Source: Candidatus Aldehydirespirator sp. (GTDB taxonomy: Bacteria > Actinomycetota > Acidimicrobiia > Acidimicrobiales > Aldehydirespiratoraceae). Taken from it: a stretch of 64,000 bases of DNA. Made by a program: the position numbers and the translations under genes. Positions 1-51,959 of the stretch are shown here, one piece after another. Below the pieces are notes generated by a model, which was given only the letters and a program-made list of their open reading frames with translations, was not told the DNA's origin and did not search any database. Numbering within the stretch: position 1 is the stretch's first letter; every line of letters starts with the position of its first letter. The stretch spans positions 4,521,839 to 4,585,838 of the forward strand of contig CBDHCM010000006.1 of NCBI GenBank assembly GCA_965261105.1. Direction: 5' to 3'.

Positions 1-112
1 TGGCCGGATCCTCGTCGGCAAACATTCGCTCGAATGCCCACAGAGCAGTTCGTCGCTGGAAGTCCTTGAGGCCGGCCAGCACCGCGTCGACATCGATGTG
101 CTGTCCGGTCAT
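1..112 (-). CDS. helicase-related protein, N-terminal fragment (gene continues beyond window start)
   Basis: Own reverse-strand translation from ATG 112-110: MTGQHIDVDAVLAGLKDFQRRTALWAFERMFADEDPA, open to position 1. The ATG overlaps the TGA (111-109) of the upstream PLD gene (ATGA). L-K-D-F-Q-R-R-T resembles the Q-motif region opening SF2 helicases. Too short to be sure. Confidence 0.35.
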   Translation of the reverse strand, partial: MTGQHIDVDAVLAGLKDFQRRTALWAFERMFADEDPA

Positions 113-29871: not shown

Positions 29872-30981
29872 TCAACACGAATAGGCGGCCACGGAGGGAT
29901 TCACGACCACTTGAAGCTCGAAGTCGAGCGCGGGCTCGATCTCGGTCACGCCCCCAACGCCGCCGGTCACGGCAACACCGAGGACGTCGCCCTGGCGCGA
30001 CACGACGCAGGTGGCGCCGTCGGGGCCCAGGATCACCGCTGCCGTTGGGACGGTTTGCAGGCGCCTGGGCTCCGCCAGCCGCACGACTCCTACGCTGGGA
30101 TCACTCGTTCCGAAACCGAGCTGCCCGGGTACTTCGGCCAGGGCCGGACTCGCGGCCCTGGCAGGACGGAGGCGGTCGGCAAGCGCGATCAGCGCGTCGG
30201 GGTCGCCGATCGCGCCGTCGGCGGAGACCGGTACAACCAGAGTGTCAGGGATCTCGAACACGATGGATCCCTCGGGCAGTACGAGACTGGAGCCCTGCGT
30301 GAGCGACACGACCGACGCGCCGGCAAGAGTCGCCTCGCCGGTCGCGATGAGGGTCTCGGCTTCAAGGAATGTGTTCACGTCCACCTCCACCCTGTCGATC
30401 ATGAAGGACTGCTCGGGTACCCAAACGACGTATTCCGGTTTGAAGATGCCGCTCTTTGGCCATCCGTATCGCTTCTCAAAATGTCGAACGGCAGACATGA
30501 ACAGCTCGTCGACTTCATTCTGGCCGGACAGTTCGCCAGATATGCCGAGGTCTGTCAGCAGGTCGGCTACGGCTTGAACATCGCCGCCTGCAGATCCCGG
30601 TGTAAGATTGCGCCAAAGCGGTTTCTCGGAAGTTATCGCCGGACGCTCAATGCCATTGACCTCGATCACAGCATCACCTTGGACTATTGGGTCGCCTGAC
30701 AAGACGACAGAGGTCACTCTGCCTTGTATCACTCCGCTGTTGATAACTGGCGTATTGTTCCAGATGCCCCGTACCCTGGCTAGCTGCCGTTCTGTAGTGG
30801 AGGACGTACCAATTGCCGCCAGTAGTGGCTCAGGCTCAGGATCGATTCCCCGCACTGGACCGAGCGTGTCCCGCATCAACACCAGAAGCAGTCCGCCGAT
30901 GACCGCTCCGATACCAGCGCCGAGAAGGAAGCCTCTTGAACCGAAAGACCTTGAACCTTCTTCGCTTCGCGACACCATCAC
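29872..30981 (-). CDS. membrane-anchored periplasmic-adaptor-like protein with a peptidoglycan-binding-like segment
   Basis: N-terminal TM helix (FLLGAGIGAVIGGLLLVL). GDVQAVADLLTDLGISGE...FMSAVRHFEKRYGWP resembles a PG_binding_1 insert. Sits in the ABC/FtsX operon. Confidence 0.55.
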   Translation of the reverse strand: MMVSRSEEGSRSFGSRGFLLGAGIGAVIGGLLLVLMRDTLGPVRGIDPEPEPLLAAIGTSSTTERQLARVRGIWNNTPVINSGVIQGRVTSVVLSGDPIVQGDAVIEVNGIERPAITSEKPLWRNLTPGSAGGDVQAVADLLTDLGISGELSGQNEVDELFMSAVRHFEKRYGWPKSGIFKPEYVVWVPEQSFMIDRVEVDVNTFLEAETLIATGEATLAGASVVSLTQGSSLVLPEGSIVFEIPDTLVVPVSADGAIGDPDALIALADRLRPARAASPALAEVPGQLGFGTSDPSVGVVRLAEPRRLQTVPTAAVILGPDGATCVVSRQGDVLGVAVTGGVGGVTEIEPALDFELQVVVNPSVAAYSC

Positions 30982-30991
30982 TACGGTAGCA

Positions 30992-31618
30992 TCAACAGGC
31001 GTTCGTCTGCAGCAGACGCATGTACTGGTCGAACCAGCCGGCCTCGGGTGACCCTATTGCCATCTCAGCATCCTGCAACGTGGGCGGGGAGCCGACGATG
31101 CCGTTGGCCTCCAGGCATGGATGAACTTCGCTGCTCCAGATCTCAAGGAACTGGGCGTCTCGTTGAGCTCTCACCGCAGGGCTGCCTTGGAACACGATGT
31201 CGACGAACATGTAGTGTTGCTCATAGCAGGACTCGACCCGGCCAGAATCGATTGTGCGGGAGTTGAAGTGCATCTCTCCCGTCTGGGGGTCCGCGCGGAC
31301 GTCCATAAGGTCTGTGCCCGCTTCTCTCACACACTGGCGGAACGCGTCGAAAGCGCGGCGATACTCTTCTGTGGTGACAACGTCATCATCCAACAGAGCC
31401 TGCTGTTCCGGTGAGGCTGTGCTCCGTAATTGCGCTAGAAGATCCTGACCGAATATGTCCTCTAGATTTTCGGCCGTATCATCGGATGAGGAGCCGTCGG
31501 CGGATGAGCCACAGCTCGCTAGCATGGACGCCGACAAGAGAACAGCCGCGATCCCTGTGAGAGATCGTGCCTTAAACAAGCGCGGTATCCGAACCAGTGA
31601 GCAATCACTGAGTGTCAA
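30992..31618 (-). CDS. lipoprotein of unknown function
   Basis: Signal peptide with lipobox ...AAVLLSASMLASCGSS. AT-richer than backbone. TTG start at the ISL3 junction. Confidence 0.6.
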   Translation of the reverse strand: MTLSDCSLVRIPRLFKARSLTGIAAVLLSASMLASCGSSADGSSSDDTAENLEDIFGQDLLAQLRSTASPEQQALLDDDVVTTEEYRRAFDAFRQCVREAGTDLMDVRADPQTGEMHFNSRTIDSGRVESCYEQHYMFVDIVFQGSPAVRAQRDAQFLEIWSSEVHPCLEANGIVGSPPTLQDAEMAIGSPEAGWFDQYMRLLQTNAC

Positions 31619-31624
31619 GTTCTT

Positions 31625-32979
31625 GAGCCTTCGCGGAAACGTGGGGAGCGGGGTGGTTGAGGGTCCCTGAGTAGGGGTCGAGGCCCTGCTGGAATCGGTG
31701 ATTGTGAGATCAACGATCCAGGAGGGCCCCGATGGCTTGCGATGTTATGACAGTTCGGCTGCACTTGGCGCAGATCCGTGTGCTGGAGGTGGTCGAGGAC
31801 ACCCCGGGCGCGCTCAGGGTGAGCGTCGAGTCCACGTTCAGGAGGCTGCGCTGCCCGCAGTGCGGGTTCAAGTGCCGCCGGGTGCATGACCGCCGCGACA
31901 AGAAGATCCGCGACCTGGAGGTGTCGGGACGGCGCACCGTGTTGGTGTGGTCGCGGCGCAGGATGGTGTGCGACAACTGCGACAGCCGCTTCTTGGAGGA
32001 CCATCCCGCGTTCGAGGGCGCGCTGACGGGGCGTCTGGCGCGTCGGCTGGTCGCTGACGCGAAGGTGATGACGTTCAGCGCGGCGGCGCGCCGCCACGGT
32101 GTGCACTGGCACGGTGTGCGCGCCCTGGTGGACGTCTGGTCGGCTCTGGTCGCTGAGCGGCGCCGCAGCCGCCGCTGCTCGGTGCTGTTGGTCGATGAGA
32201 CCTCGATGCGCAAACGGCACCGCTATGTGACCGTGATCGTCAACGGCGACACCGGCCGGACCCTGGCGATGGTCGAGCACCGCAACGCGGCTGCGCTGTC
32301 AGCGTTTTTGATGCAGCAGGGACATCGCTGGTGCAAGCAGGTCAAGGTGGTGGTCAGCGACGGATCGCGCGCCTACAAGGCGGCCATCGACGCCCACCTC
32401 GGCCACGCCCGCCATGTGCTGGACCGGTTCCATGTCATCAGATGGTTCGCGGCCGCTCTCACCCAGGTGCGCCGCGACGTCCAGCGCCGAGAGCCCCACG
32501 GCGTCAAGCCCGCCTTCGACCCCGAGGTGTTCCGGGCCCGGTTCGCGCTGCTGCGCAGAGGCGACACCCTCACCGACACCGACCGCGCCCGCCTCGACAA
32601 GCTGTTCGACGCCCACCCCCGCCTCAAAGCCGGCTGGCAGGCCCTGCAGGAGCTCCACGGCCTCTACACCGCCGACGACTATGACGGCGCCCTGGAAGCC
32701 CTCGGACGGTTCTGCGACCTCTACGAGACCGGCGAGCTGCCCGAGTACCACGACACCGTCGACACGTTCATCGCCTGGTCAGACGAGATCCTCAACTGGC
32801 ACTGTGCCGGCCGCCCCTCCAACGGCAGAATCGAGGGCACCAACAACCTCCTACAAGTCCTGCGCCGAAGCGCCCACGGGTTCACCAACCCACGCAACTT
32901 CGAAGCCCGCGGCATCCTCGTGACATAATGACCCCAACCGGTGCCAGCAACCCTCAATCCCACACTTACGCGAAGGGCC
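31625..32979 (+). mobile_element. ISL3-family insertion sequence with 8-bp target duplication
   Basis: Ends gagccttcgcggaaacgtgggga and tcccacacttacgcgaagggcc (imperfect inverted repeat). aagttctt at 31617-31624 and 32980-32987. Confidence 0.85.
31732..32928 (+). CDS. ISL3-family transposase
   Basis: RLRCPQCGFKCRRVHDRRDKKIRDLEVSGRRTVLVWSRRRMVCDNC zinc-ribbon N-terminus and a DDE region typical of ISL3. Confidence 0.9.
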   Translation: MACDVMTVRLHLAQIRVLEVVEDTPGALRVSVESTFRRLRCPQCGFKCRRVHDRRDKKIRDLEVSGRRTVLVWSRRRMVCDNCDSRFLEDHPAFEGALTGRLARRLVADAKVMTFSAAARRHGVHWHGVRALVDVWSALVAERRRSRRCSVLLVDETSMRKRHRYVTVIVNGDTGRTLAMVEHRNAAALSAFLMQQGHRWCKQVKVVVSDGSRAYKAAIDAHLGHARHVLDRFHVIRWFAAALTQVRRDVQRREPHGVKPAFDPEVFRARFALLRRGDTLTDTDRARLDKLFDAHPRLKAGWQALQELHGLYTADDYDGALEALGRFCDLYETGELPEYHDTVDTFIAWSDEILNWHCAGRPSNGRIEGTNNLLQVLRRSAHGFTNPRNFEARGILVT

Positions 32980-45535: not shown

Positions 45536-45598
45536 GGCGGCTCCTTCAGTGATCGTGTAAGCAGGCTAGGCCCGGTCGGCCCGGCGGGCCGCTGCACG

Positions 45599-45685
45599 CG
45601 GAGGGAGGGGGATTCGAACCCCCGGGACCCGTGAAGGCCCAACGGTTTTCAAGACCGTCGCATTCGTCCGCTCTGCCATCCCTCC
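45599..45685 (-). tRNA. tRNA-Ser (anticodon UGA)
   Basis: Hand-folded: GGAGGGA acceptor, anticodon stem-loop ACGGT-CTTGAAA-ACCGT, long variable arm, T-arm GGGGGTTCGAATCCCCC. Confidence 0.9.
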
Positions 45686-46729: not shown

Positions 46730-47452
46730 GTGGCGCAGGTGTCAGACCGCCTCTACTTCCGCCAGCTGCTGTCGGGGCGCGACTTTGCGGCCGGCGACGG
46801 GCTGGCCCGCCAGATGGTGAACTTCGTGTACGCCGTCGGCGATCGCCACACCGGCCAGGCCGTGCTCGTCGACCCTGCCTACGACACCGGCGGGCTGCTC
46901 GACCTGCTGGAGGCCGACGGCATGGCCTGCACCGGCGTGCTGGCCACCCACTACCACCCCGACCATGTGGGCGGCCAGATGATGGGCTTCGACATCGAGG
47001 GCGTCAGCCGGCTGCTGGAGCGGGTGTCGGTTCCGATCCACGTTCAGGCTGCCGAGGCCGATCTGGTGAAGAAGGTGACCGGCCTGGACGACGACTGCCT
47101 GGTCAGCCATGCCTCTGGCGACGTGTTGACCGTCGGCGCGGTCACCATCGAGCTCATCGCCACGCCGGGCCACACCCCCGGCAGCCAGTGCTTTCTGGTG
47201 GACGGCCGGCTGGTGGCCGGCGACACGCTCTTCCTGGAGGGCTGCGGCCGTATGGACCTTCCCGGCTCGGATCCGGCCCAGATGTACGAGAGCCTCACCA
47301 CAAGGCTGGCCCGGGTGCCCGACGACGCCGTGCTGTACCCCGGCCACCGCTACTCGCTGGAGTCGTCGGCCACCATGGGCATCACCCGCGAGCGCAACCA
47401 GGTGTTCCGCATACCCGGTCGCGACCAGTGGCTCGCCGCCTTCGCCGGCTGA
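46730..47452 (+). CDS. MBL-fold metallo-hydrolase (glyoxalase-II-like)
   Basis: LATHYHPDHVGG metal motif, ATPGHTPGS, FLEGCGRMD. Confidence 0.85.
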   Translation: MAQVSDRLYFRQLLSGRDFAAGDGLARQMVNFVYAVGDRHTGQAVLVDPAYDTGGLLDLLEADGMACTGVLATHYHPDHVGGQMMGFDIEGVSRLLERVSVPIHVQAAEADLVKKVTGLDDDCLVSHASGDVLTVGAVTIELIATPGHTPGSQCFLVDGRLVAGDTLFLEGCGRMDLPGSDPAQMYESLTTRLARVPDDAVLYPGHRYSLESSATMGITRERNQVFRIPGRDQWLAAFAG

Positions 47453-47462
47453 CGGCAACTGC

Positions 47463-47564
47463 GGCTCGTCTACTTGTCGTCCGCCGACGAGGCGATGGCT
47501 CGTCTACTCGTCGTCCGCCGACGAGGCGATGGCTCGTCTACTTGTCGTCCGCCGACGAGGCCAT
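47463..47564. repeat. 3 x 34-bp tandem repeat, each unit a GC hairpin
   Basis: ggctcgtctact(t/c)gtcgtccgccgacgaggc(g/c)at three times. Each contains cgtcg-tccgc-cgacg. Starts 11 nt after the MBL stop. Confidence 0.9.
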
Positions 47565-47631
47565 TCGAACCGACGCCTGGGAGCGAGCATCAGCGGGCTG
47601 CCGCAACGCCTGCTTGCTGTAGCCTGACTCT

Positions 47632-49089
47632 GTGAGCATTTCAGTCGAGTTATCCAATCTCGGGCCTCTACGCTCCGCCTCGCTGGAATTGGCGGACTTG
47701 ACGCTGCTCGTCGGCGAGAACAACACCGGTAAGACTTTCTTCGCCACGGTTCTGCATCGCCTTCTCAATAGTGCGCCCACTGCGCCTTGGTCACAGAGAA
47801 TCCGACCGGACGACACGCCGGTTCAAGTCAGAGACTGGATAACGGAGGTGCTCGATGATCCGGGCGGCGATGTGTCGGCGTCCAGCACCTGCGCCTTCGT
47901 GCCGAACGACAGCACCTCAAGATGGGCCAGGAAACTGACGAAGGACATCTTGGAGGCTTACGGTGATAGCGTCCGATACGACATCACGTACGCCTTTGGT
48001 GCAGAAGCATCTCGTTTGCGGCGAAGGACAGCGAGCAGGCACGCCTCTGGCTGCTATCTTCGGATATGCAATTCACATCCCAATTGGGAAGTCGAGATCA
48101 GATTTGATTCGAAATTGGTAACTGTAACGCCTCCTGATCCGCAGTCTTGGCTCATTCATGCCCTCGACCCGGATGAGATTCGCAAGACACCTCAAACATA
48201 TTCCCGACTGCGTCGTGCTTCATCTTTACGAGTTTCTGAGCATCTTGGCTATTCTCCCGTCGCGCTAAATTCATTGGTCAATTCTGCGTTGTTCGGTTCG
48301 TGGCCGCGCAACGCGATCCATTTGCCAGCCGATCGGACCGGTATTATTCAGAGCCACAATGTTCTAGCTGGTGCTACAGCTCGACAAGCAGCGAGAGCAG
48401 GTATCCGACCAATCGAGATTGAAACGCTACCCGGAACCTCTGCGGACTTTCTGTCATTGGTGCTTGAGATCCCCGAGGGAATGTCATACGCGACGGGTCG
48501 GACATCAAGATTCTCTCAGATTGTAGGTGAATTCGAGCAGGACATGCGGGCAGCCATCGAGATAGATCAGAGAGCAGACGGTATGGATGCGATAGTTGCT
48601 GTAACGTCCGAGGGGCGTTTCCCTATGGCACGGGCATCTTCGATGTTGTCCGAACTAGCACCTCTAATTCTAGTCTTGAAGTCGCCACACATTCTTGTTG
48701 ATCATTTGACGATAGATGAACCCGAGGCGCATCTTCACCCTGCAATGCAGATCCGCGTTGCGTCGTTCTTGGCAACTCTAGCAAACCAAGATGTCAGCGT
48801 CGTGTTGACCACTCATTCTGACTTCTTTGTGTCACAGTTTAACAACATGATGAGACTAAATGAGTTGTCTGGTTCGGGTAAGTCGAAATCCTACAACTTT
48901 CCTAGGCTAGATCGCTCAAGAGTTCGTGCACTCCGGTTTTCGCGAGAGAACGGGTGGTGCGTAGCGCGGACGTTGGAGCCGGACCGCGTCGATGGTATCG
49001 ATGAATCGACCTTCACGAGGGTCATGAGATCGCAGTTTAGCGAGACAGCTAGACTTGTGAACGAGTTGCTAGAGACTCACGAAGAATAG
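47632..49089 (+). CDS. ABC-type (AAA_15/21-like) ATPase, candidate defence ATPase
   Basis: Walker A LLVGENNTGKTF, LPADRTGI, signature-like ASSMLSELAP, Walker B/D-loop LTIDEPEAHLHP, H-loop LTTHSDFF. Visibly AT-richer codon usage. Confidence 0.8.
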   Translation: MSISVELSNLGPLRSASLELADLTLLVGENNTGKTFFATVLHRLLNSAPTAPWSQRIRPDDTPVQVRDWITEVLDDPGGDVSASSTCAFVPNDSTSRWARKLTKDILEAYGDSVRYDITYAFGAEASRLRRRTASRHASGCYLRICNSHPNWEVEIRFDSKLVTVTPPDPQSWLIHALDPDEIRKTPQTYSRLRRASSLRVSEHLGYSPVALNSLVNSALFGSWPRNAIHLPADRTGIIQSHNVLAGATARQAARAGIRPIEIETLPGTSADFLSLVLEIPEGMSYATGRTSRFSQIVGEFEQDMRAAIEIDQRADGMDAIVAVTSEGRFPMARASSMLSELAPLILVLKSPHILVDHLTIDEPEAHLHPAMQIRVASFLATLANQDVSVVLTTHSDFFVSQFNNMMRLNELSGSGKSKSYNFPRLDRSRVRALRFSRENGWCVARTLEPDRVDGIDESTFTRVMRSQFSETARLVNELLETHEE

Positions 49090-49096
49090 TTCCAAG

Positions 49097-49624
49097 GTGA
49101 ACCCGGATCCAGAGTCGTCGCGCTGTTCAGACGATAGATGTCAAGTTTGTCGGCTGTATTCGCAACTCCGATTCGACGGTGCTGAGCCTGTCGCGTTACA
49201 AGATATTCGTGAACATTCATGTCAGCTTAACGTTCACTTTAGTGGTGATCACAAGTGTATACACGGACTGCGCTTAGATGTGCAGAGCGCCAAGTTTCGG
49301 CGTGTCGCGAGGGGCAAGAGCAGAAGAATGTGTGACTTTGCTGTCTTAGCGCATCGTAGGAAAGTTGCTCATCTTGCGGCAATCGAGCTAAAGAGTGGAG
49401 CGGCAGATCCCGAGGATATTGAACAACTCAAAGAAGGTCTAGATCTGCTGCATAGCTACTTCGATTACGACGGACCCGAGCCGCGACTGGTAGCCTATTT
49501 TGTAGTAGGAAAAGAAGCGGAGAGGCTTGGGTTCGCCCTTCGAGACAGGCTCAGCACTCTGAGGTTCGGATCAAGGCCAGTCAAGCTAGAGATTCGAATT
49601 TGCGGTGAGTCCGTGCATCTATAG
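49097..49624 (+). CDS. small protein with a PD-(D/E)xK-like motif and an N-terminal Cys cluster
   Basis: 175 aa, 7 nt after the ATPase stop. CSDDRCQVC near the N-terminus. MCDFAVLAHRRKVAHLAAIELKSG fits D...E-x-K spacing. GTG start uncertain. Confidence 0.5.
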   Translation: MNPDPESSRCSDDRCQVCRLYSQLRFDGAEPVALQDIREHSCQLNVHFSGDHKCIHGLRLDVQSAKFRRVARGKSRRMCDFAVLAHRRKVAHLAAIELKSGAADPEDIEQLKEGLDLLHSYFDYDGPEPRLVAYFVVGKEAERLGFALRDRLSTLRFGSRPVKLEIRICGESVHL

Positions 49625-49699: not shown

Positions 49700-49836
49700 T
49701 CGTTGCTGGCGACACGCTGCTCCTGGAGGGCTGCGGACGCATGGACGGTGAACTCCATCGGTGGATGCGACAGAGTGGTGTTCCGCGTTCCGGACCGCGA
49801 GCGCTTGGCTCGCCGCCTTCGCCGCTTGACGGCAAC
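49700..49836 (+). pseudogene. remnant copy of the MBL-hydrolase 3' end
   Basis: gctggcgacacgctgctcctggagggctgcggacgcatggac and ggtgttccgc...ggctcgccgccttcgccgcttgacggcaac match 47211-47258 and 47396-47459. The intervening ~135 bp is missing. Confidence 0.8.
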
Positions 49837-49883: not shown

Positions 49884-51347
49884 CTACACCCAGGGGCAGT
49901 TGGAGTTGCGGTCGCCGAAGGTGGCCCCGGTGCGGTAGCGGTCGAGCGTGAACGGCTTCAGCTCGTCGGGCTTGTCGCCGTGCACGAGCATCTGGGCGGT
50001 CAGCTTGCCCACCCCGATCATCTTGAACCCGTGATTGGAGTCGGCGATCACCCAGGCGTTGTCGGCCACGTGGTCGAACACCGGCACGTTGTCGGGCGTG
50101 AATGCCCCGATGCCGCCGTTGCGGCGCTCCTTGAAGTACGGCCGCAGGTTCTCCAGGCGCTTGAACAGCATGCCCAGGGTGGCGCAGTAGTAGTCGGCGA
50201 ACCACTCCTCGGCCTGGTAGGTGTCGTTCAGGTGGCCGTAGGGCTCCACCGCCGCCGCGGGTCCGATCTTCACCGGAATCGTCCCGCCCTGAAGGCCGGG
50301 CGCCCCGACCCGCTCCGCGGCGTAGCGCACATAGGAGTAGAAGTGGTCCTTGAGGAGCCTGCCGTCGTCTGAGTAGACGGGCGTGTTCATGAGCTCCACG
50401 TGCAGCACCGGCGAGTCGCGGTGCTGGGCGGTGCGGAAGTCGACGCCCTCGGGCAGCAGGACCTCGCCCTCCAGCAGCCGCCAGTAGGTCCACATGTCCG
50501 TCTGCTCCTCGACGTGGCCGTCGGGATAGAGCACGTCGAGGCGGGAGGGGCCGCCCAGCCACTCCCAGTGCACCGGCGTCCACGCCCCCGCGCCCACGAC
50601 CACCTGCTCGCAGGCGATCGATCCCTGGTCGGTCTCCACCGCGGCCACCGACCCGGAGGCGTCGAGTTGGTAGCCGGTGACGGTGGCGCCGTACACCCGC
50701 CGCACGCCCCACTGGCGGCACTTCTGGTCCAGTCCCCACACCGCCATGTGGGTGCCGGCGTACCCGGAGCGGTGCTCGTGCAGCACCACGTCGCAGTTCT
50801 CGGTCTTGAAGTCGGGCCACAGGTTGGTGAGGAAGGCCCGGGCCTCCGAGCCGGTGTGGACGTCGGAGGGGTACCCGCTGGCCGCCTGCGACGCTTGGAG
50901 CTTGAGGTAGTCCTCGGTCTGGTTCGCCTCACCCACCGACACGTAGCCGACCTGCTGGAAGCCGAGGTTCACGGGGTCGGACTCCCACACCTCCACGCTG
51001 GCTCGCAGGATGGCGTGCAGCGGCCCGGTCATGTACATGTTGCGGATGCAGCCGCAGGCCAGTCCGGTGGCGCCCGCGCCCGGCCCCTGCTTGTCGATCA
51101 GCACCACGTCGCGGCCCGAGCCCTTGCCGGTGCGCTCCAGGCACCTGGCCAGGTGGTAGGCGCTCGACAGCCCGTGCACGCCTGCGCCGACCACCACGAA
51201 CCGGGCGCGGGGCGGCAGCGGCGCGGCGTCGAACACCGGGATGACGGCCGGGTTGACGGCGTGCCCGTGCACCTCGGGCGGCAGGGGCCGGTCGGCGAAG
51301 GGATACCACTGGTTGTGCTCGGTGGGGTTGGGGACGGTGCTGGTCAT
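49884..51347 (-). CDS. FAD-dependent oxidoreductase (DAO family)
   Basis: SD aaggagagg then ATG 51347. RFVVVGAGVHGLSSAYHLA GxGxxG. The remaining 5' part of the track ORF is a spurious extension across tRNA-Leu. Confidence 0.75.
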   Translation of the reverse strand: MTSTVPNPTEHNQWYPFADRPLPPEVHGHAVNPAVIPVFDAAPLPPRARFVVVGAGVHGLSSAYHLARCLERTGKGSGRDVVLIDKQGPGAGATGLACGCIRNMYMTGPLHAILRASVEVWESDPVNLGFQQVGYVSVGEANQTEDYLKLQASQAASGYPSDVHTGSEARAFLTNLWPDFKTENCDVVLHEHRSGYAGTHMAVWGLDQKCRQWGVRRVYGATVTGYQLDASGSVAAVETDQGSIACEQVVVGAGAWTPVHWEWLGGPSRLDVLYPDGHVEEQTDMWTYWRLLEGEVLLPEGVDFRTAQHRDSPVLHVELMNTPVYSDDGRLLKDHFYSYVRYAAERVGAPGLQGGTIPVKIGPAAAVEPYGHLNDTYQAEEWFADYYCATLGMLFKRLENLRPYFKERRNGGIGAFTPDNVPVFDHVADNAWVIADSNHGFKMIGVGKLTAQMLVHGDKPDELKPFTLDRYRTGATFGDRNSNCPWV

Positions 51348-51751
51348 TTCCTCTCCTTGTGAATTGGGGATCAAGTCTGGTCGCCGGCGGGCGGGAGCCG
51401 GTAGCCGGCTCCCAGGGTCCGCCAGATCAATGGGACGCCGGGCCGGTAGGCGAGGTGGCGGCGGCTGGGCGCGTCGAGGATGGTCGCATGGGCGTCGGAC
51501 AATAGGCGCGGCACCACATCGGCCGCGTTGCCGACCAGCCCCACCGACAGCGGGCGGCGGGACGCGACGGCCTCTCTGCCTGCTGCGGGCACCGCCGCAG
51601 CCGTCAGCCTGCTGCGGAGGAAAGTGCCCGGCCCCGGGCCTGATCACTGGCTGTCCCCCGAACTCGCGGCAGCCGACCGGATGCCGGCCGACGAGGCTCT
51701 GGTGGCCGCGGCGGCGGAAGCGACGGGCCCCCTCGTCTAATGGGTGAGCGG

Positions 51752-51835
<84 letters not shown>

Positions 51836-51959
51836 CGTGGCCTCGGCCCGCCGCCGGCGGACCGAGCGCGAGGCTAGCGGCCCGCCGGCCGAATCACCGT
51901 GTCACCGCCGGGCCCGGCCCCGTGCCGGAACCCCCCGTCGTCGCCACTAACATCCGCGC

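Follow-up and report, generated by a model that had tools for sequence, protein, structure and literature searches.

Two adjacent genes, for an ABC-type ATPase and a small putative PD-(D/E)xK nuclease, lie within a 64,000-nucleotide (nt) stretch of DNA, hereafter the window, from Candidatus Aldehydirespirator sp. (Actinomycetota; Acidimicrobiia; GenBank assembly GCA_965261105.1, contig CBDHCM010000006.1, forward-strand positions 4,521,839–4,585,838); positions given below are those of the window. The first open reading frame (ORF; 47632–49089, + strand, GTG start) encodes 485 amino acids (aa) and the second (49097–49624, + strand, GTG start) encodes 175 aa; both are intact and run in the same direction, 7 nt apart, and together they cover 1,993 nt. 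A preliminary description of the window, made from the sequence letters, had proposed these two ORFs, with this spacing, as a defence pair, and all of the motifs that it quoted are present in the sequence. Both ORFs are beyond chance: the ATPase matches the Pfam families AAA_15 and AAA_21, and homologues of the small ORF were found at E-values down to 1e-56. The ATPase is correctly read from the long GTG start: homologues keep the first 22 residues almost unchanged, and this stretch aligns with the N-terminal end of verified PD-T4-4_A, the ATPase of the defence system PD-T4-4. P0018, the public annotation of the identical sequence, has 463 aa and lacks 22 N-terminal residues. The promoter and ribosome-binding region presumably lie in the 67-nt leader directly 5′ of the ATPase gene (47565–47631, + strand), which gave no sigma-70-type match; promoter and terminator sites across the island were no more numerous than in shuffled sequences.

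The pair differs from its surroundings in base composition. GC content is 0.53 in the ATPase gene and 0.51 in the small gene (0.50–0.55 across the pair) against ~0.69–0.70 in the flanks, and GC at third codon positions (GC3) is 0.56 and 0.48, respectively, against 0.89–0.97 in five flanking genes, in line with the shift in codon usage and base composition remarked on in the preliminary description. The GC3 contrast between the pair and its neighbours points to recent horizontal acquisition into a high-GC Acidimicrobiia chromosome, from a donor of roughly 52% GC.

Judged by its sequence and predicted structure, the 485-aa protein is an ABC-type (OLD-type) ATPase, with a full motif set and an ABC fold, and we presume that it acts as a sensor or regulator. 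Its motifs comprise the Walker A sequence GENNTGKT (residues 28–35; G28-K34-T35), LPADRTG (231–237; R235 at the Q-loop position), the signature ASSMLSE (335–341; S336-S337-M-L-S-E341), the Walker B/D-loop segment IDEPEAHLHP (361–370; D362-E363-P-E-x-H-L-H-P370) and TTHSDFF (393–399; H-loop H395), and the lobes are separated by a long helical insert. Forty homologues (42–68% identity) keep G28, K34, T35, R235, S336, S340, the whole D362-E363-P-E-x-H-L-H-P370 segment and H395, with G28, K34, T35, R235, S336, D362, E363, H369 and H395 invariant in the alignment. Pfam assigned AAA_15 (5.7e-19) and AAA_21 (3.1e-13). In PADLOC the best matches were PD-T4-4_A (7.1e-32, 109 bits), PDC-M47A (2.6e-25, 87 bits) and AriA (8.7e-21), with further matches to NsnB, GajA (~1e-14) and Old (2e-14); PD-T4-4_A leads PDC-M47A and AriA by 7 to 11 orders of magnitude, and the relatives of the ATPase rank these families alike. 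The best matches are therefore to anti-phage families, the type of pair first proposed for this locus. NCBIfam gave sub-threshold matches only (retron Eco8 effector, PtuA and MADS3). The AlphaFold2 model (predicted local distance difference test, pLDDT, 79.5; predicted template-modelling score, pTM, 0.80) matched Retron-IA, Septu PtuA, Rad50 and SMC heads in Foldseek with a probability of 1.00 and E ~1e-10.

The 175-aa protein, the presumed nuclease effector, carries C10-SDDR-C15-QV-C18 and, at residues 78–101, MCDFAVLAHRRKVAHLAAIELKSG. Residues D61, D80, E97, K99 and Q110 are invariant in its family (39/39 full-length members), and the equivalents of D80, E97 and K99 are kept in 25, 24 and 25, respectively, of the 25 members of a distant group (alignment A2) that we recovered by profile search. 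PD-(D/E)xK enzymes carry their catalytic D…(D/E)-x-K residues on consecutive β-strands of an α-β-β-β-α-β core. The AlphaFold2 model of the small protein (pLDDT 84.4, pTM 0.82) has D80 at the start of a strand (81–87), E97-x-K99 in the next strand (90–102) and Q110 in the helix that follows (105–121), before a further strand (130–139) and helix (141–151); the predicted core is β-β-α-β-α, an order that is canonical for the PD-(D/E)xK core. The assignment thus fits the motifs, the predicted topology and the remote profile matches given below, as had been suggested from the D…E-x-K motif. No HNH or TOPRIM domain was found by Pfam or PADLOC, in agreement with the preliminary description. The protein has no Pfam family, its NCBIfam matches were noise (urease beta, 0.018), and a sequence search of the Protein Data Bank (PDB) with the family profile likewise returned noise (E ≥ 0.76). 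Seven cysteines (C10, C15, C18, C42, C54, C79 and C169) are conserved in 31–38 of the 39 small proteins, which suggests a structural or catalytic metal site; C42, C79 and C169 are common to the distant A2 relatives, while C10-x4-C15-x2-C18 and C54 are specific to the branch.

The two proteins are represented very differently in databases: a word-indexed protein search recovered 17 relatives of the small protein and more than 590 of the ATPase. An exhaustive profile search with the small protein raised its count to 93 cluster representatives, many of which were fragments beginning at an internal Met78, a start that leaves 98–102-aa pieces in protein databases. In public annotation the small gene is uncalled in L004 (the window’s own contig), L005, L101 and L103, and is called only as a 100-aa piece in L006. 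Searching these contigs with tblastn and hmmsearch revealed the full small gene directly after the ATPase gene in every one (L004 7400–7924; L005 7452–7991; L006 7447–8001; L101 8450–8995; L103 8449–9009). The small protein is under-represented because its gene is often uncalled or started at Met78, and the rarity of the family is largely an annotation artefact.

The preliminary description had looked to the co-occurrence of the two families, and an ATPase of the same family lies directly 5′ of the small gene, in the same order, at 16/16 independent loci with sequence on both sides. The pairing holds down to 31% small-protein identity, and the one A2 member that could be placed has an upstream ATPase 32% identical to that of the window, with the same motifs. 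A genome scan for the small gene, made with a tighter alignment than the 39-sequence set, gave nine species-genome matches, all to metagenome-assembled genomes (MAGs) of Acidimicrobiales or Ca. Aldehydirespiratoraceae, and the more distant ATPase homologues include one from a Gemmatimonadota-labelled MAG (L101). The GC content of the pair remains well under that of some hosts (0.52 against 0.71 at L005); in others it is closer to the host value.

Mobile or defence genes accompany the pair at some of these loci. It neighbours type I restriction–modification genes, a DUF87 protein and three DDE_3 transposases at L103, and HigBA and a DDE transposase at L006, while at L101 an ISL3 transposase lies on each side of it, with HicA and a second AAA_15/21 ATPase nearby. 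This second AAA_15/AAA_21 ATPase (L101 11912–13303, − strand, 463 aa) is encoded 3.5 kb from the first, and the L101 region, with ISL3 transposases of identical length, rve integrase fragments and the HicA toxin, may be a composite-transposon-like defence patch. One Ca. Aldehydirespirator MAG has two copies of the pair on separate contigs (L017 and L019); the small gene at L019 (5992–6378) matches residues 2–115 only, which may reflect truncation, pseudogenization or misassembly.

The pair occupies a low-GC insert of ~2.4 kb, flanked on both sides by copies of the 3′ end of the upstream metallo-β-lactamase (MBL)-fold gene (Lactamase_B; 46730–47452), a duplication that has degenerated. That gene is intact, and PF00753 is found in the identical public contig L004. 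The proximal duplicate (47213–47459, + strand), formed by the 3′ end of the intact gene plus 7 nt, marks the left boundary of the insert, and the distal duplicate (49702–49836, + strand), a degenerate non-functional remnant of the same 3′ end, marks the right; both terminate in TGACGGCAAC. They were recognized as direct repeats (families D2, D3 and D5) and by blastn of the left against the right flank. The distal copy consists of two blocks, one 87% identical over 45 nt and the other 82–94% (82% over 60 nt), from a source segment of ~247 nt, and the start-to-start spacings of the blocks, 2489 versus 2377 nt, indicate a ~112-nt internal deletion in this copy. The duplicated target ends noted in the preliminary description are therefore real, if degenerate. 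Its observation that the pair is the sole cargo also stands: between the duplicates the coding cargo is the ATPase and small genes only, with no further ORF that has a family match. No integrase or transposase was found inside or next to the insert among the window ORFs or in the L004 annotation.

At the left junction, directly after the end of the duplicate, lie three near-perfect copies of a 34-nt unit, GGCTCGTCTACTTGTCGTCCGCCGACGAGGCGAT (47463–47564, + strand), which holds an internal inverted repeat, CTCGTC…GACGAG. The unit is unique to this junction within the 64-kb window (3 matches against 0 expected); RNA folding of the tandem region was not above shuffles (z = −1.3), and it had no Rfam match. 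In independent insertions, DNA similarity begins ~0–23 nt before the ATPase start codon (~47609–47632) and stops at the stop codon of the small gene, so that the recurring unit is just the two genes. Because the duplicate of the gene 3′ end is long and diverged, with a functional copy kept on one side, the cassette probably entered on a circular DNA that carried a copy of the MBL-gene 3′ end and integrated by a single crossover (Campbell-type). After such an event the MBL-fold gene would remain whole, with its decayed copy beyond the insert.

Other features of the window lie close by. A second foreign, low-GC island (39961–43311, − strand; GC 0.51–0.55, GC3 0.59–0.63 against ~0.9 for the host) is located 4.3 kb from the ATPase pair, beside tRNA-Ser(gct). 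It encodes two tandem paralogues, of 558 and 533 aa, each with an N6/N4 DNA methyltransferase domain (~1e-40) fused to a C-terminal HNH domain; PADLOC reads them only as type II methyltransferases, and the doubled arrangement is unusual. Between this island and the tRNA-Ser gene is a 170-aa ORF without a family match (43413–43925, + strand). Rfam, run over 38–53 kb, found three tRNA genes (Ser-gct, 44138–44230; Ser-tga, 45598–45685; Leu-cag, 51751–51836) and nothing else. The listed ORF at 49884–51830 runs through the tRNA-Leu gene, and the real DAO-family gene is 49884–51347. GC content also dips to 0.61, from ~0.69, at 30001–32000.

We consider it likely that the two genes form a compact cassette of the ‘OLD-type ABC ATPase + PD-(D/E)xK nuclease’ class, directed against phages (or mobile elements) and grouped with PD-T4-4, WonAB and PDC-M47; it would work, by analogy, through abortive infection, possibly directed at RNA, and probably entered recently by Campbell-type integration. 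PD-T4-4, from E. coli ECOR58, is a validated defence system. Vassallo et al. 2022 (PMC9519451) describe it as ‘ATPase, nuclease’, its ORFs cover 1,973 nt, and the literature classes it both among PD-(D/E)xK nuclease–NTPase systems and among ABC-ATPase defences. WonAB, from the Vibrio cholerae WASA-1 prophage (AWB73975.1 and AWB73976.1), combines an OLD-type ABC ATPase with a variant PD-(D/E)xK protein; the paper that describes it (PMC12137116) sees a relationship to PD-T4-4, as well as to an operon termed ‘OLD-ABC ATPase + novel REase’ in the survey of ABC ATPases by Krishnan et al. 2020. ATPase-motif mutations and a mutation of the nuclease lysine each abolish WonAB defence, the toxicity of WonB requires an active ATPase, and WonAB activation blocks translation, leaves genomic DNA intact and results in abortive infection (PMC12137116). 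These WonAB findings are the only data on mechanism for the class. Purified EcPD-T4-4 forms higher-order complexes and cut 0/11 DNA substrates; its authors suggested that a viral cue was lacking or that the target is RNA/tRNA.

By analogy with these systems, the pair in the window is probably an abortive-infection system. In the working that we propose, the ATPase would dimerize through composite ATP sites and hold the small nuclease inactive in a complex; a phage-derived cue, sensed by the variable ATPase insert, would lead to ATP-dependent licensing of the nuclease, and the licensed enzyme would then cut an essential nucleic acid and so abort the infection. The target may be RNA (tRNA or rRNA) rather than DNA, a suspicion that arises because WonAB stops translation with chromosomal DNA intact and EcPD-T4-4 cuts no DNA substrate. 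An abortive, possibly RNA-directed working is accordingly, on these analogies, favoured over direct restriction of phage DNA. We also entertain, as a speculative and rather unlikely refinement, that the cysteines bind one or two metal or Fe–S centres beside D80, E97 and K99, and that the branch is a metal- or redox-dependent RNase of the endonuclease fold that halts translation on sensing phage. If true, the PD-T4-4/WonAB class would contain an effector with a mechanism of its own, missed by current defence finders and gene callers.

A cassette of the same class could instead act without aborting the infection, the ATPase recognizing foreign DNA ends or structures, in the manner of Rad50/SbcC, OLD or Gabija, and the nuclease cutting phage DNA so that the cell survives. 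The closest solved folds of the ATPase do include DNA-end sensors (Rad50) and SMC heads, PD-(D/E)xK enzymes are mostly DNases, and other PD-(D/E)xK nuclease–NTPase systems in the literature degrade DNA in vitro, but results on the two closest relatives tested, the eleven uncut DNA substrates of EcPD-T4-4 and the intact genome and blocked translation on WonAB activation, stand against a DNA target, and we hold this version to be unlikely. Another reading is a toxin–antitoxin (TA) or addiction module, in which the nuclease is the toxin, the ATPase its neutralizer and the main role is to stabilize the mobile DNA that carries them. The Pfam label of AAA_21 (‘AbiEii toxin, type IV TA’), the compact and tightly coupled arrangement of the pair, its sporadic distribution, like that of mobile genetic elements, the TA neighbours HigBA and HicA at some loci and the toxicity of WonB overproduced alone all fit such a module. 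The dependence of WonB toxicity on an active ATPase, however, rules out simple sequestration in WonAB, and the cassette in the window is chromosomal, with no recognizable mobile backbone for it to stabilize; we regard this explanation as improbable, though a TA module could at the same time serve abortive defence.

Least probable, to a degree that we would call very doubtful, is that the genes have no defence role, as a housekeeping DNA-repair or recombination pair (an SbcCD- or RecN-like ATPase with a partner nuclease) or as inert, decaying cargo. The likeness of the ATPase to Rad50 and SMC heads in Foldseek, the loci at which the pair sits among metabolic genes and the MAG with a truncated small gene (L019) speak for it. 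Against it, the distribution is sporadic and the codon usage strongly foreign, the ATPase lacks a coiled coil of SMC/Rad50 length, and its best sequence matches are defence rather than repair families. The ORFs are, moreover, intact, with all catalytic residues conserved across 31–99% identity, which indicates purifying selection.

Several observations weigh against the defence-cassette reading that we prefer, or against parts of it. Searched with Foldseek, the model of the small protein matched nothing in the PDB at E ≤ 0.001 (best E 0.04), its weak matches, at TM ≤ 0.33, including HamA, Can2, XisH, BamHI, EcoO109I and PaqCI, and nothing significant in BFVD (best E 0.003). As no structural match is significant, the fold assignment rests on motif, topology and remote profiles. 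The structural comparison envisaged in the preliminary description thus failed to place the protein, and it was the profile comparison that linked it, remotely, to PD-T4-4_B, the nuclease of PD-T4-4. In hhalign the window family (alignment A4) reached PD-T4-4_B at 46–52% (E = 1.4–2.1e-4), over the core only (42–76 columns); A4 and A2 aligned at 99.9% (E = 6.7e-32, 161 columns), and A2 reached PD-T4-4_B at 78.8% (E = 1.7e-5). The small protein is linked more strongly to PDC-M47B, a computational candidate only, and WonAB is likened to the window pair from the published description of its architecture and motifs, not from sequences. At several loci (L001, L005 and L102) the pair lies among metabolic or housekeeping genes, so that its association with defence islands is only partial. 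Neither the small protein nor its distant relative had a match in plasmid, phage and IMG/VR searches, nor did the ATPase in the phage collection. Finally, a search of metagenome contigs with the MBL-fold protein found no empty site for the insert; the best MBL relatives there were only 74% identical and, while PDT–MBL synteny was kept, the downstream DAO gene was not, which made an empty site unreadable.

The branch extends the PD-T4-4/WonAB class into uncultured Acidimicrobiia and Gemmatimonadota-labelled MAGs. It escapes the PADLOC models for B components and, as the small gene is in addition often uncalled, it makes a case for new profiles and for searches at the DNA level rather than of predicted proteomes. 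The cysteine-rich variant could serve as a biochemical handle on a class with a suspected RNA target. Current understanding is not overturned, and a specialist would not be surprised; what the branch offers is a more complete catalogue and, possibly, that handle.

PD-T4-4 is among the closest known systems. We retrieved and verified three true PD-T4-4 operons from enterobacterial plasmids (364–870 bits for A and 147–358 bits for B). Like them, the window pair has two near-abutting genes in the same direction, the ATPase gene (~460–485 aa) first and then that of the nuclease (~175–210 aa), an order that the verified plasmids share with the window. PD-T4-4_A of an E. marmotae IncX4 plasmid (870 bits) has 483 aa against 485 in the window, and its lobes are collinear with those of the window ATPase (window 3–61 against 1–58 in the N-terminal lobe, and 328–444 against 327–440, at 31% identity, in the C-terminal lobe). 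Identity, however, is ~30% and confined to the lobes, the central insert being unalignable, and the window ATPase reaches 109 bits to PD-T4-4_A in two local stretches, whereas verified members reach 300–870 bits in one full-length stretch.

The small proteins share a register, C-D-x16-(D/E)-x-K-S-x10/11-Q-L, with the same spacing of 17 residues from D to (D/E): PD-T4-4_B reads S-C-D-L…F-D-Q-K-S-K…Q-L-E-N-S and the window protein M-C-D-F…I-E-L-K-S-G…Q-L-K-E-G. Yet PD-T4-4_B lacks the N-terminal ~75 residues and the conserved cysteines of the window protein, keeping only the ‘CD’ cysteine, and neither the small protein of the window nor any of 13 close relatives matched its profile at E ≤ 1. PD-T4-4 members are found on mobile DNA (small Col plasmids, the IncX4 plasmid and an integrative and conjugative element) and the window pair is likewise borne on mobile DNA, the hosts being Enterobacterales in the one case and Acidimicrobiia in the other.

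PDC-M47, a candidate system of PADLOC-DB v2 with components A and B that is unvalidated, and for which our literature search found no describing paper, gives the second-best match of the window ATPase (PDC-M47A, 87 bits, against 222–307 bits for PD-T4-4 members). Its component B is the only PADLOC match of the window small protein (E = 0.032, positions 73–118 in both protein and profile). PDC-M47B was also matched by 7/14 close family members (best E = 0.00098) and by 12/25 of the distant A2 relatives (best 1.7e-7), among which fainter matches were to PD-T4-4_B (best 3.3e-4), Cas4c (1.5e-3, one member) and CARF-PDDEXK (0.035). Being weak and confined to the core, these matches would not pass a system caller, and the small proteins of the close relatives had no significant PADLOC match. 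True PD-T4-4_B proteins cross-match PDC-M47B as well, and for this reason we treat the window pair, PD-T4-4 and PDC-M47 as one superfamily, within which the pair does not map cleanly to a named system.

WonAB resembles the pair in its Walker A lysine (K34 in both), the arginine at the Q-loop position and the conserved H-loop histidine, and in the small variant PD-(D/E)xK protein that comes after the ATPase; WonA residues E300 and H333 correspond to E363 and H395 of the window ATPase, and the inserts of WonA appear shorter. WonAB homologues are reported mainly in Gram-negative bacteria (PMC12137116). In PARIS, Septu, Gabija and OLD, too, a nuclease is partnered by a sensor ATPase of the OLD ABC family, and PtuA is among the top structural matches of the window ATPase. 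Their effectors differ, being TOPRIM in AriB, GajA and OLD and HNH in PtuB, where the window effector is neither, and the pair has no GajB-like helicase. Membership of PARIS, Septu or Gabija was rejected, as neither the two proteins nor the rest of the island showed a TOPRIM, HNH or helicase domain. The preliminary description had raised an undescribed variant or family. An ABC ATPase with a PD-(D/E)xK nuclease is a known defence architecture, already validated as PD-T4-4 and WonAB and existing as PDC-M47; what is new is a distant, cysteine-rich branch. On the sequence comparisons made here, the pair is best filed as a separate, uncatalogued branch of the PD-T4-4/PDC-M47/WonAB class, cysteine-rich, centred on Acidimicrobiia and missed by current hidden Markov model catalogues.

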